From a virus: a stretch of DNA of 62,107 bases. Positions 13,783-55,522 of this stretch are shown here, piece after piece (position 1 is the stretch's first letter; each line of letters opens with the position of its first letter). The DNA lies in the IMG/VR virus record IMGVR_UViG_3300044832_000020, positions 1 through 62,107 of that record. One strand, given 5' to 3'. The translations under genes and the position numbers were made by a program. The notes below the pieces were generated by a model. The model saw only the letters and a list, made by a program, of their open reading frames with translations, was not told the DNA's origin and did not search any database.

Positions 13783-13985
13783 TCGGTAACTCCCTTACGT
13801 GAGATCGCGTCAATCCGCAGCACGCTGCGTCGATCGGTTGCTGACCGACGGTACGCGCGGTTGGTGGATCTGACAAGCGCTTGGCCGATCTTGCTGCTGC
13901 AGGCGGTTGCAATCTGCGTCAGACATGACAAGATCGGATTACGCGCTATAACGCGCTATGACTCAGAAAGGGGCAGTAACGTGCC
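13783..13985. promoter_or_regulatory. divergent genetic-switch region
   Basis: A lower-GC 203-bp spacer between divergent HTH genes. It holds tandem ACGCGCTA boxes at 13941 and 13951, and a 9-bp inverted repeat ccgatcttg/caagatcgg at 13885..13893 and 13929..13937. Confidence 0.65.
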
Positions 13986-17017: not shown

Positions 17018-17063
17018 CGCCTCCGCTGACCAGCGTAACGTCAATGGCGTCTTGACAGTGAAG

Positions 17064-17225: not shown

Positions 17226-17342
17226 CGGACTCACCTCCTCTCACAGTGCGTGTGGGCCACGCCAGGTCATCGCCTGCCGGGTCAGGACCAGTGCCCGCGT
17301 GTGATGCGTTGCCCTCGCGGGTCGGACGCGGCAGATCGTCAC

Positions 17343-34347: not shown

Positions 34348-34481
34348 GTGGTGGGGTTTCCTTCTGGTGGTGGGAAACGCCAGAGCACGCACCACCCTGG
34401 CCAGGACAGCGCCTGCCTGGTCGGTACGCGCTCTCGCGTGTGATTGCTTGCGTACGGGTGCTCGACGCGGCAGATCGACGC

Positions 34482-34949
34482 CTAGAGCCTCTGGCCGAGC
34501 CTGCTCTGCAGGTCTGCCAGCGCGGTGGCGATCTCGCGCCGCGCTTCCTTCTCGTTTTCCTTCATCGGGACCGAGAACCAGCCGGCCTTGACTGGCTGCG
34601 TGACCCAGCGGTCCGGGTGGCCGTACACCGGGTGTCGGACGCGGCCCTTGTCGATGCCGTGGATGTTGGCCGTTCCCTTGGCGATGAGCTGCAGGGACGG
34701 GTCACCTTTGCCGGTGGTCCGGTTGCGGGTCGTGAACCGTGACGCCGCGACTCGCTTGGCCAGGCCGCCACGGTGCGGCAGGATCAGCAGTGCTCGTGCT
34801 CTGGCCTCCGCCTTGGGTTTCTTGGTGGCCCGGTTGAGCGCCTTATACAGCTCGCGCTTGACTTCCTTGTCGCCGGTTTCCTTGAGCCGCTTGGACAGCT
34901 TCGCGAGCTGCTCGGCCCCGACGATCTTGAGCGGGGCGAATCCCGCCAT
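34482..34949 (-). CDS. HK97 gp10-like tail/neck component (155 aa)
   Basis: Track ORF. LKETGDKEVKRELYKALNRA...LPHRGGLAKRV resembles the gp10 family. Assignment is tentative. Confidence 0.45.
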   Translation of the reverse strand: MAGFAPLKIVGAEQLAKLSKRLKETGDKEVKRELYKALNRATKKPKAEARARALLILPHRGGLAKRVAASRFTTRNRTTGKGDPSLQLIAKGTANIHGIDKGRVRHPVYGHPDRWVTQPVKAGWFSVPMKENEKEARREIATALADLQSRLGQRL

Positions 34950-35024
34950 GTTTGCTCCTCCCTCGGTGGGCGCGTAACGTCGAGAGCGTCACGCCATCTA
35001 TGTTTCCCGAAAGGAAGTTCCACC

Positions 35025-42739: not shown

Positions 42740-44424
42740 TAGCCCTCCCCGTAGATGAAGAACGGATCCTTCGGTGGTTCTTCGGCTTCCAGCACGGCCA
42801 GGCGCCCGTCGATCGACATAAGCAGCGTCACCATGCCGTCGATCCGCTTCCCGGTCTTGCCGCGATCCGGCTTCACCGGTCGTACCCGGTCGCCGTCGTC
42901 GCGGGGTGATTTCGCCTCCAAGCTGTCCGCCATCCATGTCGAGACGGGGTTGCCGCCGTGGGCCAGCTCCTGGGATTTGAGTAGCCGGGAAAGTTCCTTC
43001 ATCGGCAGCGTCATGCGGTCGAACGTCGTGGCGGACTCATTCATCTCCAGCCCGGTCCGTTTCTGGATCTCTTGCCGGACGGGCTCGCCGGACCACCGGT
43101 CGTAGACGATGCCGGCGATCGAGTAGCGCGCGTGGTCGATCTCGATCGCCGAATAGATCAGGTCGTAATCGATCGTGTTGCCATCGGTCAGGGTGACCCA
43201 GCCGGCGTCGCACCACAGCGAGAACTTGCCGGCGGTGTGTTTGTCGAGCAGTGGCACGACCGACTCGGGTGCCCAGTACCGCCAGATCACGGTGCCGTCC
43301 TCGAACAACAGCGACCACGCGGTCAGGTCCAGCTTGGACGAGAGGTCGAGACCGGCCCAGCACTTGCGCCCTTCGAGCTGAGGGGCGAGCCAGTCGGGCT
43401 CGGGCGCGATGCCGAGATCGCCGATGTTGTCGTTCCACTCGGCGATCGACAACCAGCGGGTCGTCTGCTGCACCCATTGGCTGAGCCGGAACTGCCGGAA
43501 CTTGTTCTCTTTGGTCCGGTCGTTCTTGGCTTCGACCGCTTCCTCCCGCAGTACCTGCAGGGACAGGAAGTCACCGAGCGCCGGGTTGCCCAGCTTCCAG
43601 TTGCGTTCGTTCCACGGGTCCGCGTCGGCCGGGACGTTGCGGATGTAAACGAACGTGTGGGGGTTCCGGCTCGGGTCCTCAGCGATCCGGATCATCTCGT
43701 CGTGCTCGGCCTTGGCGAACGATGAATCGTCGTCGCCGGGCGTCGTGACGCCGACCATGAGCGGCTGGGTGCGAGCGCCGAAGCCGGTTCGCAGCGCTGA
43801 CCAGAGATCCCCGTTCGGCTGGGTGATGACCTCATCGAACGCGATCCCGTGCGGGTTCTGTCCGAGGTTGCCGGATGCGTCGGCGGCGATCACTTGATAG
43901 AACGACCCGGTTCGTTCGTCCACGATCCGCTTGCCTTGCTTGTAGATCGTCAACCGCTGAGACAGGATCGGCGACAGCTCCACCATCCGGCGCGCGACCT
44001 CGTAAACGATCGACGCTTGGTCCCTGTCTTTGGCGCACCCGTACAGCTCGGCGCCCTCTTCGCCGTCGGCGACCAGCAGAAACAGCATGATGCCGGCGAG
44101 CAGCTCGGATTTCCCGTTCTTGCGGCCCAGCTCGATCCACGCGATCCGGTACCGGCGGACGTACGTCTCCGACTCGGGGTCCCAGCGGATCGTCCCGAAC
44201 AACGGCGCGACGATATCCCGTTTCTGCCACAACGCCAGCGCGAACGCTTTCCGCGCCCACCTGGCCTTGGTGTGGACGAGCACTTCGGCGAAGAACTTGA
44301 CGACATGCGTGACGCGCGGCGCGCAGTGATGATCGCCGACCTTGCGACATGTCGTCCCGTCGAGCGCGTAGCCGCAAGGCGGTAGGCGCCGCTGTACCGC
44401 CTTCGAGGGGGTTCTAGTTGTCAT
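42739..44424 (-). CDS. terL: terminase large subunit
   Basis: 561 aa. LGRKNGKSELLAGI (Walker A-like), FDEV (Walker B-like) and a C-terminal nuclease-type region. Confidence 0.8.
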   Translation of the reverse strand: MTTRTPSKAVQRRLPPCGYALDGTTCRKVGDHHCAPRVTHVVKFFAEVLVHTKARWARKAFALALWQKRDIVAPLFGTIRWDPESETYVRRYRIAWIELGRKNGKSELLAGIMLFLLVADGEEGAELYGCAKDRDQASIVYEVARRMVELSPILSQRLTIYKQGKRIVDERTGSFYQVIAADASGNLGQNPHGIAFDEVITQPNGDLWSALRTGFGARTQPLMVGVTTPGDDDSSFAKAEHDEMIRIAEDPSRNPHTFVYIRNVPADADPWNERNWKLGNPALGDFLSLQVLREEAVEAKNDRTKENKFRQFRLSQWVQQTTRWLSIAEWNDNIGDLGIAPEPDWLAPQLEGRKCWAGLDLSSKLDLTAWSLLFEDGTVIWRYWAPESVVPLLDKHTAGKFSLWCDAGWVTLTDGNTIDYDLIYSAIEIDHARYSIAGIVYDRWSGEPVRQEIQKRTGLEMNESATTFDRMTLPMKELSRLLKSQELAHGGNPVSTWMADSLEAKSPRDDGDRVRPVKPDRGKTGKRIDGMVTLLMSIDGRLAVLEAEEPPKDPFFIYGEG

Positions 44425-44481
44425 CGCACACGCCCTGACGTGCGGACCCGGCAGGCGCTCACCGGCGACTGCTGGCGCGGG

Positions 44482-44949
44482 TCAGGACAGCAGTCGTGCG
44501 GCGCCGGCACCATGGCCCTTGCCGCCGCCCATGTGAATGTCGGAACGCCCGGACGGGGTCAGCCCGAACTCGCGCGCGTAGACCCGGATCGTGGCGGCGG
44601 CGTCGCGCTGCACCTGGACGGCGGGGTTGCGGACGGCGACCTGCCCGGTGCGCGCGTTGACCGTGACGAGCACGTTGGATTTCGCGAGCAGCCGGGATGC
44701 CTTGCGGTGGATCACCACGGCCTCGCAGTAGCAGACGAGTGCGTCACGGTCGGCGGGGCTGGCCAGCTTCATCGCGACGAGCTGGGTCAGGGTGTAGTCC
44801 CAGACGGCGCGCACTTCGGGGCTCATCTCCGCCGGCGGCTCGGGCTGCCCTTCGGGCGCGTCGGGTTCGTCGGTGTTGATCCGATCTTTCCGGTCGCCCT
44901 TCAGGATTCGCAGGTTGGTGGGTGCGCCTTTCGGTCCTCGTGCGCCCAT
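44482..44949 (-). CDS. terS: terminase small subunit (P27-family-like)
   Basis: MGARGPKGAPTNLRILKGDRKDRIN...AVWDYTL...VRNPAVQV...REFGLTPSGR resembles the P27 small terminase family. Confidence 0.7.
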   Translation of the reverse strand: MGARGPKGAPTNLRILKGDRKDRINTDEPDAPEGQPEPPAEMSPEVRAVWDYTLTQLVAMKLASPADRDALVCYCEAVVIHRKASRLLAKSNVLVTVNARTGQVAVRNPAVQVQRDAAATIRVYAREFGLTPSGRSDIHMGGGKGHGAGAARLLS

Positions 44950-44976
44950 GACTGCTCCCTCTCGTAGTTGTTCTGA

Positions 44977-45009
44977 GCCGTCACCGGTGCGGTTCTACCG
45001 GGTCGGCAG
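44977..45009. promoter_or_regulatory. copy 3 of the quasi-palindromic motif, 28 nt upstream of terS
   Basis: gccgtcaccggtgcggttctaccgggtcggcag. Confidence 0.7.
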
Positions 45010-45102
45010 ATCGAGGCGACACGTTCTATCGCAGGCGTGCCCCGACGCGGTAGAAACGTCAGGGGCCAGTTGACACTCTTGTTTACAGGGAGCCACGGTC
45101 CG

Positions 45103-45215
45103 TCACCCAAAATAGTTGCTTACTTCAGTGGTCGGGGGCTTGTTTTCTCTGGGCGGGCGCGTAACTTGAGTGGTGTAGTGCCCCGCAAGTTCAACCCCCA
45201 CCCGAGGAGCCCGCC
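45103..45215 (+). promoter_or_regulatory. promoter/operator/leader cassette, copy 1
   Basis: tcacccaaaatagttgc ... cttgtttt N16-17 taactt ... ggtgtagtgccccgcaagtt ... ggag ... ATG. Confidence 0.7.
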
Positions 45216-45401
45216 ATGAACGCAACCCAGACACTCGCAGCCCAGCTCGCATCGCTCGCTGTCCTGCTCCCGGTCCTGGTGTGGTCCGGCCGGGCGTACG
45301 TCAAAGCTGTCTACGCCCCGCACCCGGACACCGACCCCACGTACCAGTGGGACGTCGAGCTGACCGCCGATGGCCGCTTCCTCGTCCACCCCGTCTCATG
45401 A
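45216..45401 (+). CDS. small membrane protein (61 aa)
   Basis: Track ORF, first gene after cassette 1. Confidence 0.55.
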   Translation: MNATQTLAAQLASLAVLLPVLVWSGRAYVKAVYAPHPDTDPTYQWDVELTADGRFLVHPVS

Positions 45402-45601
45402 CCGCCACGATCGCGGCCCGCGATCTCGCCAAGGCGAGCACCGCCGACCTCATCGCGCAGTACGACAAAGCGGTCAGCAGCAACGCTGGCCGCTACACCA
45501 ACACGTCACCCCGCCAGACGCGGATCAACCTGATCGTTGATCTGCTCGCCGGCCGCGCCGACAAAGACGACGCCCTGGCGATCGAGTGGCTCGCATCATG
45601 A
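45398..45601 (+). CDS. hypothetical protein (67 aa)
   Basis: ATG 45398 in ATGA overlap (MTATIAARDLAK...). Confidence 0.5.
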   Translation: MTATIAARDLAKASTADLIAQYDKAVSSNAGRYTNTSPRQTRINLIVDLLAGRADKDDALAIEWLAS

Positions 45602-45771
45602 ACACCCGCTGGCCCGTCGTCGCGCGACACATCGACCGCGTCACTTGCGACCACGTCGAGTGCCACGCGCTGCGGGCTCTCGCACAGGAGGCCCACCGCC
45701 TCCACCGGTACGACCTCGTCAACACGGCTGAGCGCGAGCTGAGCCGCTGTCCAGAAAGGACTGACTCATGA
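45598..45771 (+). CDS. hypothetical protein (57 aa)
   Basis: ATG 45598 in ATGA overlap (MNTRWPVVARH...). Confidence 0.45.
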   Translation: MNTRWPVVARHIDRVTCDHVECHALRALAQEAHRLHRYDLVNTAERELSRCPERTDS

Positions 45772-46025
45772 ACAACCCCGCCGACCTTTTCTGCGCCGAA
45801 TGCGGCGCGCCCGCCACCCAGCGCGTGACCGTGCTGGTCGACGTCAACGGCGACCCCGACGCGGCCCGGCTCGACTCGCAGTCTTACTGCACTCTGCACG
45901 CGGCGACCGTCACCGAGGAACTTGCCCACGGCAACCCTCCGAACGCCGAGCTGGTCTCTGTGCTCGCGATCACCGAGGCGTGGTTGGCGCACCGAGAGGT
46001 CTGTGACAACTGTCGCAACCTGTGA
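45768..46025 (+). CDS. zinc-ribbon-like protein (85 aa)
   Basis: CAEC...C..H...CDNC; track ORF. Confidence 0.55.
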   Translation: MNNPADLFCAECGAPATQRVTVLVDVNGDPDAARLDSQSYCTLHAATVTEELAHGNPPNAELVSVLAITEAWLAHREVCDNCRNL

Positions 46026-46032
46026 TCTCTCG

Positions 46033-46141
46033 TCACCCAAAATAGTCGCTTACTTTAGTGGCCCAGAGCTTGTCAGGTTTCTCGGACGCGCGTAACTTCA
46101 GAGTCAGTAAGCCCCGCAAGTTACCAGCTAGGGAGACCGAG
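46033..46141 (+). promoter_or_regulatory. promoter/operator/leader cassette, copy 2
   Basis: -35 TTGTCA, 17 nt, -10 TAACTT; same flanking boxes. Confidence 0.7.
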
Positions 46142-46483
46142 ATGAACACCACCACCGCCGCCAGCTTCACCGCCACCATCGTGTTCTGCGACTACAGCCA
46201 GAACCAGCAGTCCACCGTCTCCCGCGAATTCACCGACTACGCCAAGGCGATCCAGTGGATCAACATCCAGAAGTTCCAGGTGACCGAAGACCTGCTGAGC
46301 GCGACGATCGTTCCCACCCCCGCCGCCCCGACCGCCCTGCAGATCACGCTTGCTGAGCTGCAGGCCGAAGAGTCCGCTCGCGAGTTGGACAGCATGCTGG
46401 CCCGCGACTGGACCCAGCCCGAGACGCCCGCCGAGTGGGCCGAGCGCCTCAACCGCAAGCTAGCCCGGGGCGTCCGCCCCTGA
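46142..46483 (+). CDS. hypothetical protein (113 aa)
   Basis: ATG 46142 directly after cassette 2. Confidence 0.55.
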   Translation: MNTTTAASFTATIVFCDYSQNQQSTVSREFTDYAKAIQWINIQKFQVTEDLLSATIVPTPAAPTALQITLAELQAEESARELDSMLARDWTQPETPAEWAERLNRKLARGVRP

Positions 46484-46517
46484 TCTCCCACCGGGGGCGG
46501 GTGAAACCGCCCCCAAC

Positions 46518-46590
46518 GGGTCTATAGCTCAATGGCAGAGCAGGCCATCTATATGCGCTTGGCGCCGGTTCGATTCCGGCTAGATCCACC
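46518..46590 (+). tRNA. tRNA-like gene (73 nt) with canonical acceptor, D and T arms but an irregular anticodon arm; identity unresolved (loop tctatat)
   Basis: gggtcta ta gctc aatggca gagc a ggcca tctatat gcgct tggc gccgg ttcgatt ccggc tagatcc a. Only 3 of 5 anticodon-stem pairs form. Confidence 0.55.
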
Positions 46591-46624
46591 GAGACCGCCA
46601 ACCGGGCGGTCAGAAGGGAAAGTC

Positions 46625-47095
46625 ATGACAGGCACGACCCTGCGCACTCGCACTCACCAACAGCGAATCGAGCAGATCCGCCGACTGGTCGCTGAGCATC
46701 ACGTCCCCGTGACCGGCCAGAACCTGCACGAAGATTTCGTCCTCGACAACATCGCCAGCGTGCTCGGCGGCGGCGAGGCTACGATCTCCCACCCCCACTA
46801 CGTCGCATGCCTGGAATACCTGGCCCGCCGGCCGATCTACCGCGCCGATCGTTCGTCGCTAACGACAGTGTCGAATCTGATCCTGCGGATCCGCCGCGAG
46901 CATGACAAGGCATTCAGCTACGACGCCGGCTATGACGGCGGCGAGTTCTCTGGCCCAGCTCATCAGCGAGCTGAGACCCGGGAGATCGAGGTCGCGGTGG
47001 CCAGCAACGGCTGGACCTGGCAAGCGCTAGAGGATGAGCTACGCGCCCGCACGACTGCGCGCTGGGCTCACTACGTACTGATGGGCTGGTTCTGA
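46625..47095 (+). CDS. hypothetical protein (156 aa)
   Basis: ATG 46625 with SD gaaggga. Confidence 0.55.
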   Translation: MTGTTLRTRTHQQRIEQIRRLVAEHHVPVTGQNLHEDFVLDNIASVLGGGEATISHPHYVACLEYLARRPIYRADRSSLTTVSNLILRIRREHDKAFSYDAGYDGGEFSGPAHQRAETREIEVAVASNGWTWQALEDELRARTTARWAHYVLMGWF

Positions 47096-47292
47096 TGGCT
47101 GAGAGCGAGCCCCTGTGGGGCCTGTTGTTCGACGGTAAGGAACTGGCCGCCGCTGGCCCGATGGTCATGACGCGCCACAGCGACGCGCCCGCCGATTACA
47201 GCATGATGATCCGCCGCGACGGCGAGACCATCACCCTGCCCGGGTCGTTCCGGCTGCGCTTCATCGCGACCGAGATCCCGTCTCTCAACTAG
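47095..47292 (+). CDS. hypothetical protein (65 aa)
   Basis: Track ORF with start/stop overlap. Confidence 0.5.
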   Translation: MAESEPLWGLLFDGKELAAAGPMVMTRHSDAPADYSMMIRRDGETITLPGSFRLRFIATEIPSLN

Positions 47293-47304
47293 GAGGAACC
47301 AACC

Positions 47305-47673
47305 ATGTCCGAAGTCACCTTCGCCGACGTCCTCACGTACGTCGCCACAACCGCAACCTTCGATGAGATCAAGGCGCTGTTTGCCGCCGGCAACGCGCGG
47401 GGCAAAGCGCTCCATGCTGCTGACGCCGCCGTCACTGCCGGGCTGCTGAAAGCCGGCGACCGGGTCGAGCTGGCCGGCGTCCGGCCCGCGTACCTCAACG
47501 GGCTCACCGGGACGTTCGTTCGTCTGGACACCGCGAATCGTGCTCGCACGACCGCCAAGCAGCGCGCCACGGTCAAGCTGGATGAGGCAAGCGCCTTCAA
47601 GGCTGGCCGCTACGTGAACGGCAGTCGCGAGATCGCCGGGATCCCCGTCAGCGCTCTCAAGATCGTCGCCTGA
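47305..47673 (+). CDS. hypothetical protein (122 aa)
   Basis: Track ORF; SD aggagg upstream. Confidence 0.6.
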   Translation: MSEVTFADVLTYVATTATFDEIKALFAAGNARGKALHAADAAVTAGLLKAGDRVELAGVRPAYLNGLTGTFVRLDTANRARTTAKQRATVKLDEASAFKAGRYVNGSREIAGIPVSALKIVA

Positions 47674-47769
47674 CACGCGCCCGCGTGACTCTTCATGTGT
47701 CTGTGTGCCCAGCGGGTCAGGACCCGGCAGATCGTCGCCGGTGACTCGGCCCGTCTGGGCGACGGATCG

Positions 47770-47876
47770 TCACCCGAAATAGTTGCTCCCGGTTCGCGCC
47801 CAGCCCTTGTTTCCCCGCCGGGCGCGCGTAACTTGAGAGGTGTAGTACCCCGCAAGTTTACTCAGAGGAGACCGAG
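47770..47876 (+). promoter_or_regulatory. promoter/operator/leader cassette, copy 3
   Basis: As copy 1; dyad AACTTG N17 CAAGTT intact. Confidence 0.7.
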
Positions 47877-48263
47877 ATGACCACCACCCCGACCGCCGTC
47901 CTCACCGCCTACTTCCACTCGGGGTTTGGCGAGAGCAGCCCGATCTTCGCCGACCTCAAAGTCGAATTCGGCACCGACGAAACCGCCGCCCGCGAGCTGG
48001 CCGCGAAACTCCCCAAGAGCTACGGGGCCAGCGTTCACACCGTCGGCCGCTACTCCGGTGGGACCAGCACCTACTACCTCGCAGTCCACGCCAACCTGTT
48101 CCCGACCGAGGGCAACGACCGCAACGAAACCGGCATCCGCCGCCTCATCAACGCCGAGCGCAAGCTCACCGCGCTGGGCGTCGAGATCGCCTTCGGCAAC
48201 CCCGCCGACCGCACGATCAACGCCTACCGCACCCGCGAGCAGTTCAACGCCGCGATCGCCTGA
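47877..48263 (+). CDS. hypothetical protein (128 aa)
   Basis: Track ORF after cassette 3. Confidence 0.6.
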   Translation: MTTTPTAVLTAYFHSGFGESSPIFADLKVEFGTDETAARELAAKLPKSYGASVHTVGRYSGGTSTYYLAVHANLFPTEGNDRNETGIRRLINAERKLTALGVEIAFGNPADRTINAYRTREQFNAAIA

Positions 48264-48315
48264 CCTGAGCGGGCGGGTCTCCCCCGAGACTCGCCCAACT
48301 GAGGGCCACGATCCA

Positions 48316-48424
48316 TCACCCAAAATAGTTGCCGCGATCAAGCGCCCAGCCCTTGTTTTCCCGCTGGGGGCGCGTAACTTAAGAGGTGTAGTACCCCGCA
48401 AGTTCAACCCCAAGGGAGCCGATC
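48316..48424 (+). promoter_or_regulatory. promoter/operator/leader cassette, copy 4
   Basis: -35 ttgttt 48353..48358 and -10 taactt 48375..48380. Confidence 0.7.
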
Positions 48425-48649
48425 ATGATCACTCGCACCGTCGCCACCGTCGTCGCCACCCCGGCCACCGAACTCCAGTTCGCCGTCGAGGGCTTCACCA
48501 CCGAACTCGCCACCGACCTGCTCCCCCTGCTCGTTGCGTCAGCGCAAGTTGACGGCACCGACGTCAGCGAAGCCCGCGAGTCGTTCCTCTCCACCCTGCG
48601 CGACGCGCTGACCACCGCCCACCAGCTCTCCCACGAATTCGACAACTGA
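48425..48649 (+). CDS. hypothetical protein (74 aa)
   Basis: Track ORF after cassette 4. Confidence 0.55.
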   Translation: MITRTVATVVATPATELQFAVEGFTTELATDLLPLLVASAQVDGTDVSEARESFLSTLRDALTTAHQLSHEFDN

Positions 48650-48736
48650 CCAGACAGCAGTTGAGCGAGTCCGCCCCGACTCGCTGAATCGGTTGCCTGA
48701 CCACCCCGGCCAGACCCGAACCCCGAAAGGAAAGTC

Positions 48737-49753
48737 ATGTCGCACCAGCTAGAACGCAACGGCACCGAGGTCGCCTTTGTCGACAACCGGAACGATGCTT
48801 GGCACCAGCTCAACAACCTGCCGGCCGAGTATCAGGGCAAGAAAATCAGCGCGGAGGTAGCGCTGGAGGCCGGCCACCTCGCCGACTGGAACGTCCGCAA
48901 GGTTCCCGCGTATGCCCTGCTCGACGGCGGCGAGTACGTCGCGATGCCCGGTCAATTCGCCACCGTTCGCGACAACCCCTGGACGCCAGGCCAAGTCGAT
49001 CTGCTCGGCAGTGTCGGCAGCGCCTACGTGCCCGTCCAGAACGAAAGCAACATCGACGTCCTGAATGCCGTTATCGATGAGACGGGCGCCACGATCGAGA
49101 CCGCCGGCTCGCTGCGCGACGGCAAGAACGTGTTCGTCACGATGAAACTCCCCGACACGATGAGCGTGGGCGGCGTCGACAAGGTCGATCTCTACATCGC
49201 CGGTCTCAACAGCCACGATGGGACGTCCGCGTACAACATCCTCGTCTCGCCGGTCCGCGTCGTCTGCGCCAACACCCAGAGCTATGCGCTCCGCAACTTC
49301 GAGGCGAAACACCCGATCCGCCACACATCCAGCGCGACCAAGAAAATCGAGCTGGTCCGCCAGTCGCTCGGGCTCGCGTTCAAGTACGCCGAGGAGCTGC
49401 AGGTCGAGGCAGACAAGATGATCGACACCGCGCAGACCGAGGCCCAGTTCCTGGAGATCGTCAACCAGATCTGGACCCCCGACGACGAGCCCAGCAAGCG
49501 GGCCGTCACCGTCGCTGCCGAGCGCACCGCAAAGCTGGTCGACCTGTTCTCAGTCGCCCCCACCCAGGCGAACATCAGGGGCACCCGCTGGGCCGGTCTG
49601 CAGGCAGTCACCGAGTACATGGACCATTTCGCGCCCGTCCACAGTGGCCAGCGCGACGAAGCCACCCAGCGCGCCGAGCGCGTCCTGGTCGGCTCCACCG
49701 CCGCCAGCAAGTCGACCCGCCAAAAGGCGTTCGACCTCTTCTCCGTCAACTGA
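48737..49753 (+). CDS. DUF932-family phage/plasmid protein (338 aa)
   Basis: NDAWHQL...VPVQNE...GKNVFVTMKLP...LNSHDGTSAY...VRVVCANT fits the DUF932/TIGR03299 pattern. Confidence 0.65.
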   Translation: MSHQLERNGTEVAFVDNRNDAWHQLNNLPAEYQGKKISAEVALEAGHLADWNVRKVPAYALLDGGEYVAMPGQFATVRDNPWTPGQVDLLGSVGSAYVPVQNESNIDVLNAVIDETGATIETAGSLRDGKNVFVTMKLPDTMSVGGVDKVDLYIAGLNSHDGTSAYNILVSPVRVVCANTQSYALRNFEAKHPIRHTSSATKKIELVRQSLGLAFKYAEELQVEADKMIDTAQTEAQFLEIVNQIWTPDDEPSKRAVTVAAERTAKLVDLFSVAPTQANIRGTRWAGLQAVTEYMDHFAPVHSGQRDEATQRAERVLVGSTAASKSTRQKAFDLFSVN

Positions 49754-49829
49754 CCGAAAGCGGATCACCCCCGCCCCACCAGGCAGGGGTGATCCGGCAC
49801 CACCCCACCAACCCCGAAAGGAACACGTC

Positions 49830-50255
49830 ATGAACGACACATCCAACCCGACTGTCTGGGTCTCGATCGCCGAGCTACAGGCCGCCGTGTATGAGGTCGA
49901 GGCCGGTCGCAACGGCGACGTCAACGATCTCGTGAGGCTGCGCCACGCGCTGAATCTGGCGCTGGCCCGCTGGCCCGAAGTCAACCCCTACCCGCCCGTC
50001 TGGCACGTCGCACAGGCTCACGTTGACGATCACAGCCGGCCCGAAGTGCTGCTGCACCTTGAGCACTGCCCGCACTTCTACACCGACGCGGAGCGGGCTG
50101 CTGAAAGCATCCGAGACCCCGACGTCCGCCAGACGACCGCTGGGGAACGCGCGCTCACACTCGACGGCGCCGGCCGTACATGGCGCCACTGTCAGCACTG
50201 CGACGCGAAAGCCGCGAAGGGCGAATCCTGGCCGGATTGGAACGCGGCATCGTGA
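49830..50255 (+). CDS. hypothetical protein (141 aa)
   Basis: ATG 49830 (MNDTSNPTVWV...), in frame within the track ORF. Confidence 0.55.
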   Translation: MNDTSNPTVWVSIAELQAAVYEVEAGRNGDVNDLVRLRHALNLALARWPEVNPYPPVWHVAQAHVDDHSRPEVLLHLEHCPHFYTDAERAAESIRDPDVRQTTAGERALTLDGAGRTWRHCQHCDAKAAKGESWPDWNAAS

Positions 50256-50497
50256 TCACCGTCGGGATCGTCGGCGACTACAACAACGACCATCACTATG
50301 AGCGCACCGTCGCGGTCGCCGGCCCCACCGCTGAGGAACGCAACGATCTCGGCGAGTGGTGGTGGGACGTTGTGTATCCCGAGACAGGTGACAACCAGAC
50401 AGAGCGGGGCGTCGAGGGCATACACACATGCACGATCCTCGCTGCCGACCCGCCAGACAACGACCTCGTGGGCGTCACGTACGACCTAGGCGGCTGA
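50252..50497 (+). CDS. hypothetical protein (81 aa)
   Basis: GTG 50252 in GTGA overlap. Confidence 0.5.
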   Translation: MITVGIVGDYNNDHHYERTVAVAGPTAEERNDLGEWWWDVVYPETGDNQTERGVEGIHTCTILAADPPDNDLVGVTYDLGG

Positions 50498-50500
50498 GCA

Positions 50501-50701
50501 GTGAGAATCACCGAGGCCCGGAAGCGCGCGACCGCCACGGGGCGGCACGGGTACTTCCGGGCCAGCGCCACCGAGATGTATGCGCGTTGCCCGGAGTGCC
50601 GGGTCAACGTCACCACGACCGTGTTCGCCTGGGCGAGCGAATCCGAAAAGTCCAAGGCCCGTAAGCAGTCAATGATCGAGCACCTGATGGAGGAGCACTG
50701 A
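50501..50701 (+). CDS. hypothetical protein with CPEC motif (66 aa)
   Basis: Track ORF. Confidence 0.5.
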   Translation: MRITEARKRATATGRHGYFRASATEMYARCPECRVNVTTTVFAWASESEKSKARKQSMIEHLMEEH

Positions 50702-51054
50702 TGATGAGCACCGCAATCGACACGAGACAAGCGCCCCTGTGGGTACGGACAGCGAGGCGCCCATGGAAGCCGCCGCGACTGTCGCCCGACGGGAAGCCGT
50801 TCGAGCCGGAAGGGTTCCACCCGGGCGCGACAGTGACATGGCGGCAGCTCGTTGCCGGCGACTGGGCCGAGCGTTCCGGGCAAGTCTGGTCGGACGGCTG
50901 GCTGCCCAAATCAGTCTGGGTGATCCCCTTCGAGCCACTCGCCGGCGAGCACGCGGTGCTCGTGCAGCAAGAGCGGTACGGCCGATACGAACGCAGCACC
51001 TGGGGCGACGACAACGCCGCCACATTCAAGGCGAACACCGAGAGGAACCACTGA
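50701..51054 (+). CDS. hypothetical protein (117 aa)
   Basis: Track ORF. Confidence 0.55.
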   Translation: MMSTAIDTRQAPLWVRTARRPWKPPRLSPDGKPFEPEGFHPGATVTWRQLVAGDWAERSGQVWSDGWLPKSVWVIPFEPLAGEHAVLVQQERYGRYERSTWGDDNAATFKANTERNH

Positions 51055-51055
51055 C

Positions 51056-51302
51056 ATGTCCGCTGATCGCACGTCGACGTTCAACCACCCGTACCAATTG
51101 CGGGGCCGGCAGTTCAAGACGCGCACCTACAAGACCGAGGCCGCCATGGATGCGGCTGCGGCCAAGGCACTCGCCGACAGCTACTGGCCCAACACCGGCT
51201 GGCCGGTGGCTGCGCGGGCTGCGGGAATTCCAGCCGAAGGGGATGCCCCACGACTGGTACGAGATCAAGACGTACTACCCGGAAGCCGAGAGGGTGTGGT
51301 GA
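51056..51302 (+). pseudogene. small gene whose coding signal switches +1 frame near the GGG at 51223..51225 (indel, pseudogene or recoding)
   Basis: The frame of ATG 51056 is GC3-rich until about 51222. From there the +1 frame is GC3-rich (EFQPKGMPHDWYEIKTYYPEAERVW) and stops at 51300..51302. Confidence 0.45.
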
Positions 51303-51304
51303 CG

Positions 51305-51844
51305 ATGAACCAGCGCGAGCAACTACTGGCCGCGTATAACGCATGGCAGATCGAGCGGGCCTCGCTGTCCGAGCGCGAGAACAACCAGAGGGACCCGGAC
51401 GGCCCGGTCAGCTCGGACGAGTGGCACGCCAGCGACGACGCGGGGATCGACCTGCTGCACAGCTTCGCGGCGTTCGATTGGAACGTCTTGCCGGCCGAGC
51501 GCCCCGATCACTGGGCCGAGGACAGGGAGTTTCCCGTCGCCGACTGGCGAGCCGAGGTCGCCGATGACAACACCCGCCAGAGCTACGTCGACTGGGTAGC
51601 GAGCCAGCGGGGTGAGCTGGCTGACAACGTCCTGGCCGAGCCGGCGCCGTTACCGCCGAACTGGCAGGTAGCAGATCTGCATGACCCGGACTCACCGGAT
51701 CTGGCCGACAACATCCTGGCCGTGAGCGACGACGTCGACCCGTTCGCCTACGCCGAACACACCGAGGACGCGAACGCGGGTAGCGACGATGACCAAGCAG
51801 AGCCATACGCCAGCGATGAGCCGATCGAGGGCGGTTATCGGTGA
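51305..51844 (+). CDS. hypothetical acidic protein (179 aa)
   Basis: ATG 51305 (MNQREQLLAAYNAW...); GC3 recovers here. Confidence 0.55.
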   Translation: MNQREQLLAAYNAWQIERASLSERENNQRDPDGPVSSDEWHASDDAGIDLLHSFAAFDWNVLPAERPDHWAEDREFPVADWRAEVADDNTRQSYVDWVASQRGELADNVLAEPAPLPPNWQVADLHDPDSPDLADNILAVSDDVDPFAYAEHTEDANAGSDDDQAEPYASDEPIEGGYR

Positions 51845-51876
51845 ACGCGACCCCGTCACGGGTTAACGTGGGAGGT

Positions 51877-52152
51877 ATGACTACTCCCACGTTTCTCCCG
51901 CTACGGGAAATCGCTGAGCTGATCGGCGTCGAGTACCGCACGATCCGCAACTACCACCAAATGGCTGAGCGCCGGCGCCGCGAGAGCGAGTCGAGCGGCG
52001 TCGACGTCACGCGACCCGGCGATTTCCCGAAACCCGATGACACATTCAGTCGGACGCCCGTCTGGAAGGTCTCGACGGTACGCGCCTGGGAGAAGCGCCG
52101 GCCCGGTCGCGGCGTGGGTGGCGGCCGGCCACCTAAGAAAGATGCTGGCTGA
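51877..52152 (+). CDS. AlpA/excisionase-type HTH protein (91 aa)
   Basis: ATG 51877 after gggaggt. LPLREIAELIGVEYRTIRNY...DFPKPD...TPVWKVSTVRAWEKRR. Confidence 0.6.
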   Translation: MTTPTFLPLREIAELIGVEYRTIRNYHQMAERRRRESESSGVDVTRPGDFPKPDDTFSRTPVWKVSTVRAWEKRRPGRGVGGGRPPKKDAG

Positions 52153-52234
52153 CACCGCCTGACCCCTACCGGGTCCGATCGAGCGCCCTAAGCAGTCACT
52201 AGCGCTCGATACCCACCGAAAACCCACTGTCAAC

Positions 52235-52305
52235 GGGCTCTTGACACCGCCAGAGGCATGCGCGAATCTTAGAGGGCAACACACCCACCAAGTTAGGAGC
52301 CCGCC
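52235..52305 (+). promoter_or_regulatory. diverged fifth copy of the promoter/leader cassette
   Basis: cttgaca ... gcgcgaatctt ... caagtt aggagcccgcc ATG. The last 15 nt are nearly identical to copy 1. Confidence 0.5.
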
Positions 52306-52590
52306 ATGAGCCGCAAGCTAGGTCCCGTCGAAACCCCCGAGTATGGCGCGATGGTGCGTCGCATGGTCCGCGCGTACGGCAAGCGCGTTGGCAACGCCGA
52401 CGACGTCGACCTGAGCCAAATGCTCGCCCTGCGCGATGAGGTCGAGGCAGCGATTGCCACCGCCGTGACCCTGCAGCGCACCGAGTGGAACCGCTCATGG
52501 GCCGAGATCGGCCGTGGGCTCGGCATCACCCGCCAAGCAGCCCAGCAGCGTTACGGGCGCACCCAGAACGAAGAGGAGCAGGCATCGTGA
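52306..52590 (+). CDS. small HTH DNA-binding protein (94 aa)
   Basis: C-terminal WAEIGRGLGITRQAAQQRYGR is a sigma-r4/Hin-like HTH. Confidence 0.55.
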   Translation: MSRKLGPVETPEYGAMVRRMVRAYGKRVGNADDVDLSQMLALRDEVEAAIATAVTLQRTEWNRSWAEIGRGLGITRQAAQQRYGRTQNEEEQAS

Positions 52591-52763
52591 CCGACTGCAC
52601 CGGCAGCGGGCGACCGTGGGGCTCGGGGACGGGCGCCCCGATCTGCCCCGTCTGCCACCGAGGACCCAACGCACTACAGACCAAGCGGCCCGTGCGCCGC
52701 AAAGGCCACTGGTCCGGCATCGTGCCGGCCCACGAACACAGGGAAGGATCGCTGAGGAAATGA
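52587..52763 (+). CDS. hypothetical protein with CPVC motif (58 aa)
   Basis: GTG 52587 in GTGA overlap. Confidence 0.4.
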   Translation: MTDCTGSGRPWGSGTGAPICPVCHRGPNALQTKRPVRRKGHWSGIVPAHEHREGSLRK

Positions 52764-52987
52764 ACGACACAGTGAACTGCCTGGGCTACGCCGGCGGCGC
52801 CTGCTCGGGTCCCATCGAATACCGCATGCCGCTATCTGGCACTGGGGAATCGTTCCCGCGCTGCGACAAACACTGGGCCGCGCGCCTCGAACTGGAGCAG
52901 GAACTGCGCGAGCGCTACCCGGCGACGCCACCGGCCGACTGGTCCCCGCTCGACGCCGGCGAGCACTGGAATGAAGAGGACTACTGA
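52760..52987 (+). CDS. hypothetical protein (75 aa)
   Basis: ATG 52760 in ATGA overlap. Confidence 0.5.
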   Translation: MNDTVNCLGYAGGACSGPIEYRMPLSGTGESFPRCDKHWAARLELEQELRERYPATPPADWSPLDAGEHWNEEDY

Positions 52988-52988
52988 G

Positions 52989-53177
52989 ATGAGGGCATAT
53001 CCGATGTGGCCAGGGGTCCCGGCCGCCGGCCACGTCACATCAGGCGGCGCCTGGCACCCGGGCGCAATCAGCTCGTGCAGCAAGTGCGACCGCCACGACT
53101 ACGAGCCGGGCGACGTCACGCACCCGATGCACACCGACCCCAACTGCCGGCACTGCGGAGAGGCGAAACACTCATGA
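52989..53177 (+). CDS. Cys/His-rich mini-protein (62 aa)
   Basis: ATG 52989; CSKC...H...CRHC. Confidence 0.45.
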   Translation: MRAYPMWPGVPAAGHVTSGGAWHPGAISSCSKCDRHDYEPGDVTHPMHTDPNCRHCGEAKHS

Positions 53178-53392
53178 GCTACGAACTCGGCAACGCCGTC
53201 GCCCGCGTCGTCGCAGAACACACCGGCCTGGAAGAGGGCTCGATCGTCGGGCTGCACATCACCGGCGATCTGGTCTGGGTCGTTTACGGCGTTCGCACCG
53301 GCCCCGGCCCCGAAGACATTCAGCGACGCACCCGAGCACTTGACCCCGTCACTGGCGCCACCGTCAGCGACGATTTTGGAGAGATGACATGA
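53174..53392 (+). CDS. hypothetical protein (72 aa)
   Basis: ATG 53174 in ATGA overlap. Confidence 0.5.
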   Translation: MSYELGNAVARVVAEHTGLEEGSIVGLHITGDLVWVVYGVRTGPGPEDIQRRTRALDPVTGATVSDDFGEMT

Positions 53393-53709
53393 GCGACTGG
53401 CACGAAAACCCACCACCACGGCACCGCGTACCGATCCCGGTCGAGACCCTCGAACACGTCGACGGCGTGCAGTGGCTCGACGCGCCGGTGCCGCCCCGCC
53501 AGCATGACTGCTGGGCGCAGACCAAGGCATTCGACGTGTTCGGCATGTTGATCGCCGAGCGCTGCGCCTGTGGTGCAATCCGACTGTGCGACAACCCGTA
53601 TCGCGAGCACCCGTGGCTCGAACGGAACTCGCGCGACGACGCCGAGCGACGTCATACCCCACCGCGCGGCCGGCTCGCCGCCTGGCTGTCCCGGCGGAGC
53701 CGGCGATGA
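53389..53709 (+). CDS. hypothetical protein (106 aa)
   Basis: Track ORF. Confidence 0.55.
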   Translation: MSDWHENPPPRHRVPIPVETLEHVDGVQWLDAPVPPRQHDCWAQTKAFDVFGMLIAERCACGAIRLCDNPYREHPWLERNSRDDAERRHTPPRGRLAAWLSRRSRR

Positions 53710-53933
53710 GAGCCAAGCTGGAGCGAGATTTCGACGGCGGCGCCATCGTCATCACGACCCGGCGCCGCTGGTATCGAGCCGGCGCCTGGTTCGGCATTGC
53801 GCCCGGTCACCACAAGGGACTGTGGCACACACCCGGCCGAGTGCATGGCTGGAATCTGCGGGTCGGGTCGCTGCACAAGTGCCTCACTCTGCTCGGTCAC
53901 ACGCGGCCCCGCGATGACAGGTATGACCGATGA
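53706..53933 (+). CDS. hypothetical protein (75 aa)
   Basis: ATG 53706 in ATGA overlap. Confidence 0.45.
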   Translation: MRAKLERDFDGGAIVITTRRRWYRAGAWFGIAPGHHKGLWHTPGRVHGWNLRVGSLHKCLTLLGHTRPRDDRYDR

Positions 53934-54319
53934 TGCCGCCCGAAGAACTGCGCGTGCTGACCGTGCGCCAGCCCCACGCCAGCGCGATCGTGCTCGGGCA
54001 CAAAGACGTCGAGAACCGCACATGGCAATGCCCGGTGCGTAGCGTCATCGCCATCCATGCCGGCAAGTCGCCCAGCGAGATCGCGCTGGCCATGCCGCTG
54101 CTGCTGCCCGACCCGCTACCGACCGGCGCCATCATCGGCGTGGTTCGCGTCGCCGACTGCCTGCCCGGCACGTCGACCAGCCCGTGGGCGATCCCCGGGC
54201 ACTGGCACTGGGTGCTCGCCGACCCCCGGCTACTGAAAGTGCCGGTCGCCTTCACGGGGCGCCAGGCCCTCATCCACGCACCGGCCGACGTCGCTCGCGC
54301 CGTGCTGGACCAGCTTTGA
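53930..54319 (+). CDS. ASCH-domain (PUA-like) protein (129 aa)
   Basis: LTVRQPHASAIVLGHKDVENRTW...IAIHAG fits the ASCH N-terminal pattern. Confidence 0.6.
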   Translation: MMPPEELRVLTVRQPHASAIVLGHKDVENRTWQCPVRSVIAIHAGKSPSEIALAMPLLLPDPLPTGAIIGVVRVADCLPGTSTSPWAIPGHWHWVLADPRLLKVPVAFTGRQALIHAPADVARAVLDQL

Positions 54320-54345
54320 CGGGAACCCGCTCCCTTTGCGTGCCC

Positions 54346-54373
54346 GACGCTCCCCTCCCTGGAGGGGAGCGTC
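54346..54373. terminator. bidirectional stem-loop at the convergence of the plus block and the early minus operon
   Basis: gacgctcccctcc ct ggaggggagcgtc read directly. Confidence 0.7.
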
Positions 54374-54394
54374 TCCCCTGTGTGTTCGTATCTG

Positions 54395-55522
54395 TCAGCC
54401 TTCCGACGCGGCAGGGGGCAACGTCGAGCGTCCCAGCGGCACGTACTCGAACGACCTCACCGAGAGCCGGCGGGGGCTGAGGTTCCCGCGTCGCAGACTG
54501 GAGCGGGTTGTCGTCATCAACTGCCGAAGGTTCTTCGACGTCGAGCGCCAGCGCGGCGAGCGGGTGCAGTAGGCGATCACCGCCGGGTGCGCCACCACGT
54601 ACCGATAGCGGAACCCCTGATCGGCCAGGCGCTCCCCGACCCAGTCATTCATCCGCATGCCCAGACCGAGGCCCTGGAAGTCAGGCAGCACCACCAGCCG
54701 GTGCGCCATCTTGATCGTGCTCGTGTGCGGGTGCTGGAAATGCTTGTAGGCCGTGAACGCCACCAGCCGGCCGTCGATCCAGCCGCCGTAGCACGTCGCC
54801 GAACTGATCAGCTCGGCGCTCAAATAGTGATGACGGCGGAACATCTGCCAGGCAGCTTTGCCCACCGGGGCAATGGCAAGCTCGACTGGAGGGTGGGGTT
54901 GAACCGACCTCCAGTTGAATTCGCCGGTCGCCAGATCCAGCACCCAATCGGGCTGCAGCCAGTCGTGAACGTCGTAATGGCACGTCACCGCGACGAACCG
55001 CTGGCCGTTGCGGCGGACCGTTTTCTGCAGGGCATGCGAGGCGACCTGCGCGACCTGGCGATCCACGACCGAGGTGAACTCGTCCACGACCGTGACGCCG
55101 TCGACCGGCTCGGACAGCAGGCGCGCCATGTCGGCGCGGAACTGCTCGCCGTTGCTCAACGTCCGGTACGGCCGGCACCAGCTCGGCGGTGAGGACAGCC
55201 CCACGGCGGACAGCGCGCCGGTCACGTCTTTGATGCCCATCTGCTCGGGGAAGCCGTCAACGATCGCGGAATCCGCCGGCCAGGGCTTCATCTCGCGCAT
55301 CTGCTCGGGCCAGCGCTCCCGGGCGATGGTCGTCTTGCCCGATCCGGACGGGCCGACGATCATGCCGACCTGCCACGGTTGCGCATCGAGCGGCAGCGAC
55401 ACGTCCCAACTGAGGTCGGCCCGGTCAGCCAGCGGCACATCGAACATCGCCGAGAGCTGCAGCACCCGGCCGGATCGCTGCACCGGCGTGGAGACTGAGA
55501 CCTTGACCCGGTCGCCGCTCAT
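54395..55522 (-). CDS. ABC-type ATPase fused to a GNAT-like acyltransferase domain (375 aa)
   Basis: GPSGSGKTT (Walker A), LSNGEQFRA (signature), VVDEFTS (Walker B). The C-terminal RRHHYL...RLVVLPDFQGLGLG is a GNAT-like CoA-binding loop. Confidence 0.6.
   Translation of the reverse strand: MSGDRVKVSVSTPVQRSGRVLQLSAMFDVPLADRADLSWDVSLPLDAQPWQVGMIVGPSGSGKTTIARERWPEQMREMKPWPADSAIVDGFPEQMGIKDVTGALSAVGLSSPPSWCRPYRTLSNGEQFRADMARLLSEPVDGVTVVDEFTSVVDRQVAQVASHALQKTVRRNGQRFVAVTCHYDVHDWLQPDWVLDLATGEFNWRSVQPHPPVELAIAPVGKAAWQMFRRHHYLSAELISSATCYGGWIDGRLVAFTAYKHFQHPHTSTIKMAHRLVVLPDFQGLGLGMRMNDWVGERLADQGFRYRYVVAHPAVIAYCTRSPRWRSTSKNLRQLMTTTRSSLRRGNLSPRRLSVRSFEYVPLGRSTLPPAASEG

Follow-up and report, generated by a model that had tools for sequence, protein, structure and literature searches.

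The 62,107-nucleotide stretch of DNA analysed here (IMG/VR record IMGVR_UViG_3300044832_000020, called the window at its full length) comes from an integrase-encoding, temperate actinobacterial phage that is uncultivated and known from metagenomes alone. Four modules of about 110 bp (c1 to c4) stand directly before genes of a plus-strand block of this genome, and we interpret them as reiterated early promoters of the housekeeping-sigma type, with a predicted transcription start and an unstructured leader. Taken as a whole, the explanation that we favour, and hold to be probable, is that the modules are four diverged copies of one unit (early promoter, leader and ribosome site), spread by duplication and now serving as patches of homology. 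The copies are old and conserved in blocks.

Anatomy of the reiterated modules

The 17-mer TCACCCAAAATAGTTGC (block 1) has four plus-strand matches, at 45103, 46033, 47770 and 48316, with zero or one mismatch, when 0.01 were expected, and none elsewhere in the genome. Every module runs up to an ATG (45216, 46142, 47877 and 48425), so that the reiteration of four modules before start codons, reported in a preliminary description of the window, is borne out. The order of the parts is the same throughout: block 1, a -35 hexamer TTGTnn, a spacer ending in GCGCG, a -10 hexamer TAACTT, block 4, a Shine-Dalgarno sequence (SD) and the ATG. The four modules, and the partly similar region c5, are as follows.

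c1, 45103..45215, plus strand: block 1 at 45103-45119, -35 TTGTTT at 45140-45145, 16-nt spacer ending GCGCG, -10 TAACTT at 45162-45167, block 4 CCCCGCAAGTT at 45181-45191, SD at 45206-45209, ATG at 45216; heads genes 45216-46025; orthologues in the metagenomic contigs L136, L145, L146 and L147.

c2, 46033..46141, plus strand: block 1 at 46033-46049, -35 TTGTCA at 46070-46075, 17-nt spacer, -10 at 46093-46098, block 4 at 46112-46122, SD at 46131-46135, ATG at 46142.

c3, 47770..47876, plus strand: block 1 at 47770-47786, -35 at 47807-47812, 16-nt spacer, -10 at 47829-47834, block 4 at 47848-47858, SD at 47867-47870, ATG at 47877; heads gene 47877-48263.

c4, 48316..48424, plus strand: block 1 at 48316-48332, -35 at 48353-48358, 16-nt spacer, -10 at 48375-48380, block 4 at 48394-48404, SD at 48414-48418, ATG at 48425; heads gene 48425-48649 and the DUF932 gene 48737-49753.

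c5, 52229..52305, plus strand: palindrome GTCAACGGGCTCTTGAC at 52229-52245 overlapping a -35 TTGACA at 52241-52246, 18-nt spacer ending GCGCG, AATCTT at 52265-52270, 13 nt, CCCACCAAGTT at 52284-52294, SD, ATG at 52306; heads the helix-turn-helix (HTH) gene 52306-52590.

These modules had been described as nearly identical. The similarity is real, but global pairwise identity among c1 to c4 is only 69-82% (random window pairs: 52.8 +/- 2.6%), and it is concentrated in blocks that are separated by variable stretches forming two sub-families, c1/c2 and c3/c4. The sequences GCGCGTAACTT and CCCCGCAAGTT are exact in all four, whereas another sequence given as conserved in the preliminary description, GGTGTAGTACCCC, is exact in c3 and c4 only; c1 deviates from it at one position, and c2 has GAGTCAGTAAGCC instead. 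Only the modules have the two SD-ATG types GGAGCCCGCCATG and GGAGACCGAGATGA, and GGAGCCCNNCATG occurs only at c1, c4 (one mismatch) and c5.

Distances within the modules are in part invariant. Block 1 starts 37 nt before the -35 in four of four modules, and block 4 follows the -10 by 13 nt in c1 to c5 as well as in the copies of L131 and L136. The -35/-10 spacer measures 16, 17, 16, 16 and 18 nt in c1 to c5, respectively. From block 4 to the ATG the distance ranges from 12 to 25 nt, and from block 4 to the SD from 0 nt in c5, where the SD directly follows, up to 14 nt in c1. Block 4 is therefore part of the promoter or of the RNA 5' end rather than of the ribosome site. More generally, both blocks are fixed relative to the promoter and not to the start codon, and would thus act in transcription initiation or at the RNA 5' end. 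Block 1 is the sole A+T-rich tract of the module, centred near -64, and block 4 lies at about +8 to +18 relative to the predicted start. Both are asymmetric, keep a single orientation relative to transcription and are strictly conserved while adjacent bases vary. Neither pattern was detected outside the modules, including near the putative repressor gene and its divergent promoter, further matches in the genome being at chance level. Inverted-repeat scans of the modules yielded no shared stem, no terminal inverted repeats and no repeats of the type termed ESAS (see below).

The reiteration had originally been called five-fold, a count that does not hold for c5. Over the full length, c5 is 51-54% identical to c1 to c4, which is the chance level; it lacks block 1 and resembles the modules only over its 3' part of about 65 nt, from the -35 onward. 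Within this part lies AGGAGCCCGCCATG, which shares its final 13 nt (GGAGCCCGCCATG) with c1. By its sequence, c5 is a separate class of predicted promoter with its own candidate palindromic operator over the -35.

A predicted promoter class with a GCGCG-ending spacer

The composite pattern TTGnnn-N11-13-GCGCG-[TA]AnnnT occurs seven times in the circular 62-kb genome, for 0.14 expected, and all seven occurrences are intergenic and correctly oriented toward a start codon, in keeping with the promoter-like geometry first noticed in the modules (TTGTTT or TTGTCA, a spacer of 16-17 bp ending in GCGCG, TAACTT). They correspond to c1 to c5 and to two other sites.

13848-13876 (feature 13829..13876), minus strand: leftward promoter of the immunity region, next to the gene of the putative repressor; TTGTCA-17-TACCGT, spacer ending GCGCG.

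34952..34980, plus strand: promoter of a lipoprotein-like gene; TTGCTC-17-TAACGT, spacer ending GCGCG.

Here, 'immunity region' designates the intergenic region between genes 13546-13782 and 13986-14312. The second site lies 44 nt upstream of the ATG of the gene at 35025, a plus-strand gene within the minus-strand structural block whose product has a lipoprotein-like signal (MNARTVATLSALAVLTLAGC); the related -10 context previously noted there (34963-34978) thus proves to be part of a promoter of the same class. The shorter motif GCGCGTWA is present eight times in the genome, seven of them within these regulatory regions.

As two of the seven composite promoters are otherwise unrelated to the modules, the -35/GCGCG/-10 arrangement represents a promoter class of this phage rather than a mere by-product of duplication. 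Likewise, the variation in spacer length (16-18 nt) fits promoter function, as plain copying would not generate it. The geometry is that of the housekeeping sigma factor, with TTGnnn/TAnnnT-like hexamers 16-18 bp apart and pointing at a gene.

Other promoter signals were looked for around the modules. A divergent minus-strand promoter based on TATTTT in the reverse complement of block 1 was dismissed, no -35 being visible by eye, and neither CRP-like motifs nor motifs resembling those of extracytoplasmic function (ECF) sigma factors were seen by eye in the modules. The minus-strand GCGCGTACCGT at 52075, considered as a promoter context, has no -35 and lies inside a gene, and was attributed to chance. 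The only k-mers common to the modules and the immunity region are the GCGCGTA promoter context and the -35 TTGTCA.

Conservation in related phages

No match was obtained when the region was compared by megablast with 50,697 isolated phage genomes, nor, with c3 as the sole module queried, by blastn against the same genomes, even at E <= 10. An exact scan of genome contigs for the 17-mer returned 119 single, unrelated chance matches, with no actinobacterial genome among them, and pattern scans of IMG/VR retrieved only L120, a near-identical fragment of the same phage. Relatives were instead recovered by protein-anchored searches, as metagenomic contigs with the same terminase-divergent layout; contigs L142 to L144 contain too little upstream DNA for comparison.

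The blocks are kept in several of these relatives. L136 (DUF932 77% identical) has three modules, namely orthologues of c1 and c2 and a single copy of the c3/c4 type, and L145, L146 and L147 each have one c1 orthologue with GCGCGTAACTT and block 4, in which block 1 is increasingly diverged (TCGCCCAAAGTAGTCGC, TGGCCCAAAATAGTTAC and CGGCTTAAAGTAGTCAA, respectively). Conservation is partial in two others: in L131 (70%), TCACCCAAAAT is also located 37 nt from a promoter, TTGCAG-17-TAGATT, followed by N13 and CCCACCAAGC, and in L138 (71%), TCACCCAAAAC stands 27 nt rather than 37 nt from the -35, i.e. 10 bp, or one helical turn, closer.

The c2 orthologue of L136 is 87% identical to that of the window, against 62-79% third-codon identity in the flanking genes, which indicates that the module is under constraint. 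Window c2 also resembles its L136 orthologue more than it does the other modules of the window.

Candidate operators: dyad and palindrome

In the preliminary description, a dyad AACTTG-N17-CAAGTT spanning the -10 and the probable start was taken to suggest that one dimeric regulator controls all copies. The dyad exists in part. Its 6-bp form holds in c1 and c3 only, while the 5-bp form AACTT-N19-AAGTT is exact in c1 to c4, broken in c5 by one mismatch, and has no other exact copy in the genome. That such an imperfect dyad would be the operator of one dimeric regulator switching all five promoters seems to us quite unlikely. The idea draws on the confinement of the exact 5-bp form to c1-c4, on copy 1 of L136, whose arms are perfect at eight of eight positions (AACTTGAG ... 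CTCAAGTT), and on the 21 bp, or two helical turns, between the arm centres. However, what forms the left arm is simply the -10 hexamer, with block 4 as the right arm, and block 4 is kept where the -10 differs (AATCTT in c5, TAGATT and GACATT in L131, TAGGAA in L138); symmetry is therefore not the conserved property. The arms match at three of eight positions in c5, are lost in L131 and L138 and are weakened in L145 (CGCACGTT). Their sixth position is G, C or A on the left and invariant on the right. The dyad was not found beside the putative repressor gene nor elsewhere in the genome, and an inverted repeat of 5-6 bp within 30 bp is weak evidence by itself. The proposal of a single regulator acting through this dyad is accordingly not supported.

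A better operator candidate, judged by its distribution, is the 17-bp palindrome GTCAA-N7-TTGAC, which is probably a repressor operator. It has two perfect copies in the genome for 0.015 expected, and ten copies for about one expected when up to one mismatch is accepted. In c5 (52229-52245), its right arm forms the consensus -35 TTGACA. Further sites are listed here.

17040..17056: perfect copy close to the lysis region, in the gap separating two minus-strand genes, where it falls after a stop codon and ahead of the next SD.

15678-15694: one mismatch, inside the 3' end of the integrase gene.

45058..45074: GTCAGGGGCCAGTTGAC, one mismatch, located 28 nt ahead of block 1 in c1; a candidate operator for the repressor.

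13829-13845: GTCGATCGGTTGCTGAC, degenerate with two mismatches, just downstream of the -10 of the leftward immunity-region promoter.

At c2 to c4, no palindrome was detected even with three mismatches allowed. In relatives, it overlaps the -35 of a c5-like promoter of L131 (4576-4656), arranged as in c5, and stands 28-29 nt from block 1 of the c1 orthologues in L136, L145 and L147; L146 and, at a greater distance, L138 also have it upstream of c1-like promoters. Sites in these contigs include L131 4576, L136 77, and L138 1131 and 8088. This pattern suggests a repressor with c5 and the leftward operon as direct targets, and c1 as a possible further one. The palindrome often falls within a longer TAAC...GTTAC context, and the copy at L138 8088 adjoins an SD.

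Blocks 1 and 4 could, alternatively, be asymmetric sites of the immunity repressor comparable to the operator and stoperators of phage L5, the modules then being silenced directly in the lysogen. We regard this as unlikely. In its favour, both blocks are asymmetric, keep one orientation and are strictly maintained amid variable bases, block 4 sits just downstream of the start, where a roadblock would act, and c2 to c4, having no palindromic operator, need another means of silencing. Neither block, however, is found outside the modules, the putative repressor gene and its divergent promoter included, and four to five sites compare poorly with the tens of dispersed sites of L5-type systems. The palindrome, which overlaps the -35 of c5 and recurs at the leftward immunity-region promoter, is also the better candidate.

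Folding of the predicted leaders

The five predicted leaders (c1 to c5) all fold worse than their dinucleotide shuffles (z from +0.95 to +2.46; of 200 shuffles, 167-200 reached at least the same stability), which fits selection for an open translation-initiation region. Across 44800-52500, the only Rfam match above the gathering score is a tRNA-Ile at 46518-46590, overlain by a sub-threshold antisense match to Plastid-ycf2 (26.1 bits, gathering score 65.7). The conserved leader is thus not a structured RNA. An action at the RNA level in general, whether as a structured element, a small RNA or the binding site of a translational regulator, strikes us as very improbable. It would account for block 4 being transcribed at a fixed distance from the predicted 5' end and for the two shared SD-ATG types limited to the modules, but it is opposed by the poor folding of all five leaders, the lack of an Rfam family match, the lack of a shared stem in the inverted-repeat scans of the modules and the 0-14 nt separating block 4 from the SD, which speaks against a direct ribosome-binding function. 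The leader may still serve as a single-stranded protein-binding site.

Modules as joints of gene gain and loss

Comparison with relatives supports an early suspicion that the cassettes are duplication or recombination joints. Where the window has c3, gene 47877-48263 and c4, L132 and L136 have a single module and the gene is absent. This module is a c3/c4 hybrid, with a c3-like 5' flank and spacer and a c4-like 3' part and coding start, and would be the expected product of recombination between two copies, or of duplication in the reverse direction. The breakpoints of the indel fall inside shared sequence, as expected for homologous recombination. The c1 copy of L145 is likewise a mosaic, in which 5' and internal segments of c2 type are joined to a ribosome-binding region and gene of c1 type. 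Together, the hybrid c3/c4 module and the mosaic c1 identify the modules as recombination joints. The SD-ATG types have also been exchanged between c5 of the window and the orthologous copy of L131.

Gene content varies around these joints. L131 has a c1-like promoter, one small gene and then directly DUF932, and in L138 the HTH gene sits in the first operon; the block is therefore a variable array of promoter-headed modules.

Similarity was also said to continue into the first codons of the downstream genes. This is convincing only for c2 and c3 (43 nt at 84% identity; about 30 nt of coding sequence in common), although the two proteins are otherwise unrelated. The shared stretch is low-complexity ACC/GCC, so that as the trace of a joint it is suggestive only. 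Genes 46142 and 47877 were rejected as paralogues (BLASTP E = 19).

That the repeats are nothing but scars of a small mobile element or of a recent segmental duplication, devoid of any regulatory role, is hardly credible, even though gene presence and absence between relatives is bounded by modules and copies are mosaic. The modules have no terminal inverted repeats or target duplications; conservation is block-wise rather than uniform, and orthologous copies are better kept than synonymous sites; all copies share one orientation and stand exactly before a start codon; two unrelated promoters have the same geometry; and the copies are old, c2 of the window being nearer to its L136 counterpart than to its own paralogues.

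Possible boundaries between transcription units

Two hairpins separate successive units of the block.

47695..47770, plus strand: G+C-rich hairpin region directly upstream of c3; -50.8 kcal/mol over 47670-47772, z -2.3; may be a terminator, though it has no U-tail.

48264..48304, plus strand: G+C-rich hairpin separating c4 from gene 47877-48263; -28.1 kcal/mol, z -3.1; may likewise be a terminator, again lacking a U-tail.

Further hairpins follow genes 46142-46483 and 48425-48649. None precedes c2, which begins 7 nt past the stop codon of the preceding gene.

A conserved intergenic hairpin motif, GAGCGAGTC-CGCCCC-GACTCGCT followed by ..TCGGTTGCCTGACC, is present at 48663-48685. It recurs after early genes in L138 (2715-2800, 3555-3655), L139 (10282-10380) and L140 (9928-10004, 11020-11117), and appears to be a second reiterated element of the lineage, terminator-like and without a U-tail.

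Proposed mechanism and its weak points

In our favoured explanation, each module would combine a SigA/sigma-70-type early promoter with a short unstructured leader and a strong ribosome-binding site, and would drive a few small accessory genes as a short operon. The hexamers recognized by RNA polymerase would be TTGTnn and TAACTT at a distance of 16-17 bp, the conserved GCGCG coming immediately before the -10, and transcription would start about 7 nt downstream of the -10. For block 1, the likeliest role would be one that depends on its helical phase relative to the polymerase, with the tract either bending the DNA or serving as an UP-like element, or else binding a phage activator. The -35 hexamers are weak, and in one relative block 1 lies exactly 10 bp closer. 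Block 4 would be a shared mark of the early promoters of this lineage, c5 included. The latter promoter would be repressible through the 17-bp palindrome over its -35. As c2 to c4 have no palindrome, their silencing in a lysogen would probably involve a factor made only after derepression, or blocks 1 and 4. The copies would have arisen by duplication and would now offer homology for the gain, loss and exchange of gene modules.

Several points weigh against this reading. A scan of 44400-54400 for the Escherichia coli consensus (at least 4/6 per hexamer and 9/12 in total) found no site; TTGTTT and TAACTT each match that consensus at three of six positions only, and the promoter argument leans on the looser TAnnnT rule of actinobacteria. 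TTGnnn-N16-18-TAnnnT as such is not enriched genome-wide (7 versus 8.5 expected), enrichment being confined to the GCGCG-containing subset. The term 'early' is deduced from gene position only. The hairpins have no U-tails, and a role in termination is uncertain. The case for helical phasing of block 1 comes from L138 as the only relative, and the -10 of its promoter (TAGGAA) is poor. In the more distant L139 and L140 (62-63%), a related promoter without block 1 is used, and L139 has the HTH gene 52306. Finally, neither block 1 nor block 4 could be assigned a candidate binding protein.

A bolder version can be entertained tentatively, and we think it improbable as stated. The modules would form a single-input array of portable 'expression adaptors', in which block 1 and/or block 4 load a phage factor made only after derepression of c5 and the leftward promoter. 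This factor could either activate transcription in the class I manner or, like Q or AlpA, act as a promoter-proximal antiterminator by which polymerase passes the inter-module hairpins. Recombination between adaptors would let the array take up and reshuffle new orphan genes, in some cases as in-frame fusions to the first 10 or so codons. The weak -35 hexamers, the phase of block 1 in L138 and the fixed block 4 are compatible with such an array, as are the lack of an operator at c2 to c4, the hairpins between units, the module-bounded indel and the mosaics. If true, it would be a promoter-based analogue of a gene-cassette array.

In any case, the modules provide a compact and delimited promoter for high-G+C actinobacterial phages, with four separable blocks and natural variants in relatives. 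They could be used to test the helical phasing of an upstream A-tract or of activator sites in actinobacteria and the role of GCGCG, or serve as portable expression parts. They are also a clean example of repeated regulatory DNA acting as homology for the gain and loss of small accessory genes. No new category is involved, reiterated phage promoters having long been known; the value lies in the well-defined anatomy.

Comparison with known systems

The closest analogue is the Streptomyces phage phiC31, like the present one a temperate actinobacterial phage that pairs a reiterated promoter element with a separate palindrome. Its early region contains a motif of about 21-28 nt, CCGGGTTGCCGACTCCCTTAC, of which nine family members are listed (eight within about 45 nt upstream of annotated early-gene starts and one inside gene 12), and at least ten copies of a palindrome, CCTACTCACGTGAGTAGG. 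The former are reportedly early promoters and the latter the conserved inverted repeats (CIR) bound by the repressor. As in phiC31, conserved promoter copies stand directly before early genes in the window, which has only four module copies against the nine listed. The elements share no sequence similarity, and the modules resemble ordinary -35/-10 promoters, which phiC31 early promoters are said not to do. They also add an upstream block, a leader block and a ribosome site, reaching about 110 bp in all. The palindrome, perfect at c5 and at 17040, with one mismatch near c1 and two at the leftward promoter, and absent at c2 to c4 (up to three mismatches), accompanies c1 and c5 only rather than every promoter.

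In mycobacteriophage L5 (Cluster A), the early operon is transcribed away from the terminase/cos end, mostly from one early promoter, P-left, and some 20-30 repressor sites of 13 bp are dispersed over the genome. The window is similar in that the early operon leaves the terminase end and that short asymmetric sites keep one orientation relative to transcription, but here it is the promoter itself that is reiterated, with blocks 1 and 4 confined to the modules. Neither block behaves as an L5-type stoperator, i.e. as a dispersed asymmetric site in many copies.

The core of the start-associated sequences (SAS) of Cluster K mycobacteriophages is GGGATAGGAGCCC, with which the AGGAGCCC of c1 and c5 overlaps. 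In Cluster K, such conserved asymmetric sequences are tied to the translation starts of many non-structural genes (PMC3203893). The SAS is a 13-mer at the ribosome site in at least ten copies per genome and the extended form (ESAS) consists of 17-bp imperfect inverted repeats with a spacer of 4-13 bp; neither occurs in the window, whose blocks are, unlike the SAS, positioned by the promoter and not by the start codon. Finally, the Gordonia phages CaiB (cluster DR) and Vardy (cluster DJ) have several intergenic motifs of 40-50 bp directly before start codons, with promoter-like hexamers, and a role in regulating short operons was proposed for them (PMC9302106, PMC9671010). Those motifs have other sequences, belong to lytic or unclassified phages and are uncharacterized, with no upstream or leader blocks and no evidence of recombination described.

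Genome context and other features

The window represents a circular, complete phage genome of about 62,084 bp and about 66% G+C. Its ends share an exact 23-bp overlap (AAGGCTGTAGCAGACCCACCAGA, at 1-23 and 62085-62107) and it is therefore not a prophage with flanking host DNA. The main landmarks are these.

13546-13782, minus strand: excisionase-family HTH gene, divergent from 13986-14312.

13986-14312: small HTH-like gene, putative immunity repressor, assigned by position and sequence only.

14591-15772: tyrosine integrase.

44482-44949, minus strand: small terminase gene, from which the structural genes continue downwards on the minus strand.

45216 to about 54319, plus strand: block of small genes, diverging from the terminase gene.

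48737-49753, plus strand: DUF932 gene.

Even the nearest isolated phages are remote, with 54% identity to Streptomyces phage Chymera in the large terminase and 43-45% identity of DUF932 to proteins of Arthrobacter, Rhodococcus and Microbacterium phages. Rhodococcus phage Jace has a similar layout, with the small terminase gene facing DUF932, MerR-like and HTH genes, but the promoter module was not found in it. Among the module-headed genes, Pfam, PHROGs and NCBIfam gave matches only for the DUF932 and HTH proteins.

The HTH protein 52306-52590 has a weak match (E = 1.5e-4, residues 35-85) to PDB 9sdc, RelI, the antitoxin of the RelS-RelI system of Mycobacterium tuberculosis (PMC13284704). Its homologue is located in the first early operon in L138 and behind a MerR-like gene in L139. 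The HTH gene gp89 of Jace occupies the corresponding position, with no tblastn match between the two.

The tRNA-Ile at 46518-46590 (anticodon TAT) lies within the early block, directly after the hairpin following gene 46142-46483, and would be transcribed from c2. A 60-nt stretch (72% identity) is common to 14437-14496 and 46883-46942, and encodes the motif L.IRREH...S.D.GYD.G both in the open reading frame (ORF) 14317-14586, just upstream of the integrase gene, and in the early gene 46625-47095 (BLASTP E = 6e-06); a shared domain may link the immunity-adjacent gene with the early one.

A tandem direct repeat ACGCGCTATA/ACGCGCTATG of 10-bp period occupies 13939-13960, shortly before the putative repressor gene 13986. 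It overlaps the -10-like TATAAC and TATGAC, each also preceded by CGCGC, and could either serve autoregulation or be the promoter from which the repressor gene itself is expressed. In the terminase/c1 intergenic region, a 30-nt repeat GCCGTCACCGGTG.GGTTCT.CCGGGTCGG at 44977-45006, close to the inverted repeats GGTTCTACCG/CGGTAGAAAC, recurs at 2781-2810 with 90% identity and may be related to cos or packaging.

Dense families of periodic repeats of 54-57 nt occupy 19273-20400 inside the minus-strand ORF 19039-22017 (992 aa), a large structural gene that probably encodes a repetitive tail-fibre-like protein. Lastly, an 87-nt repeat (74% identity) is found at 17261-17347 and 34400-34486, directly 3' of the stop codons of the minus-strand genes 17343-17693 and 34482-34949.

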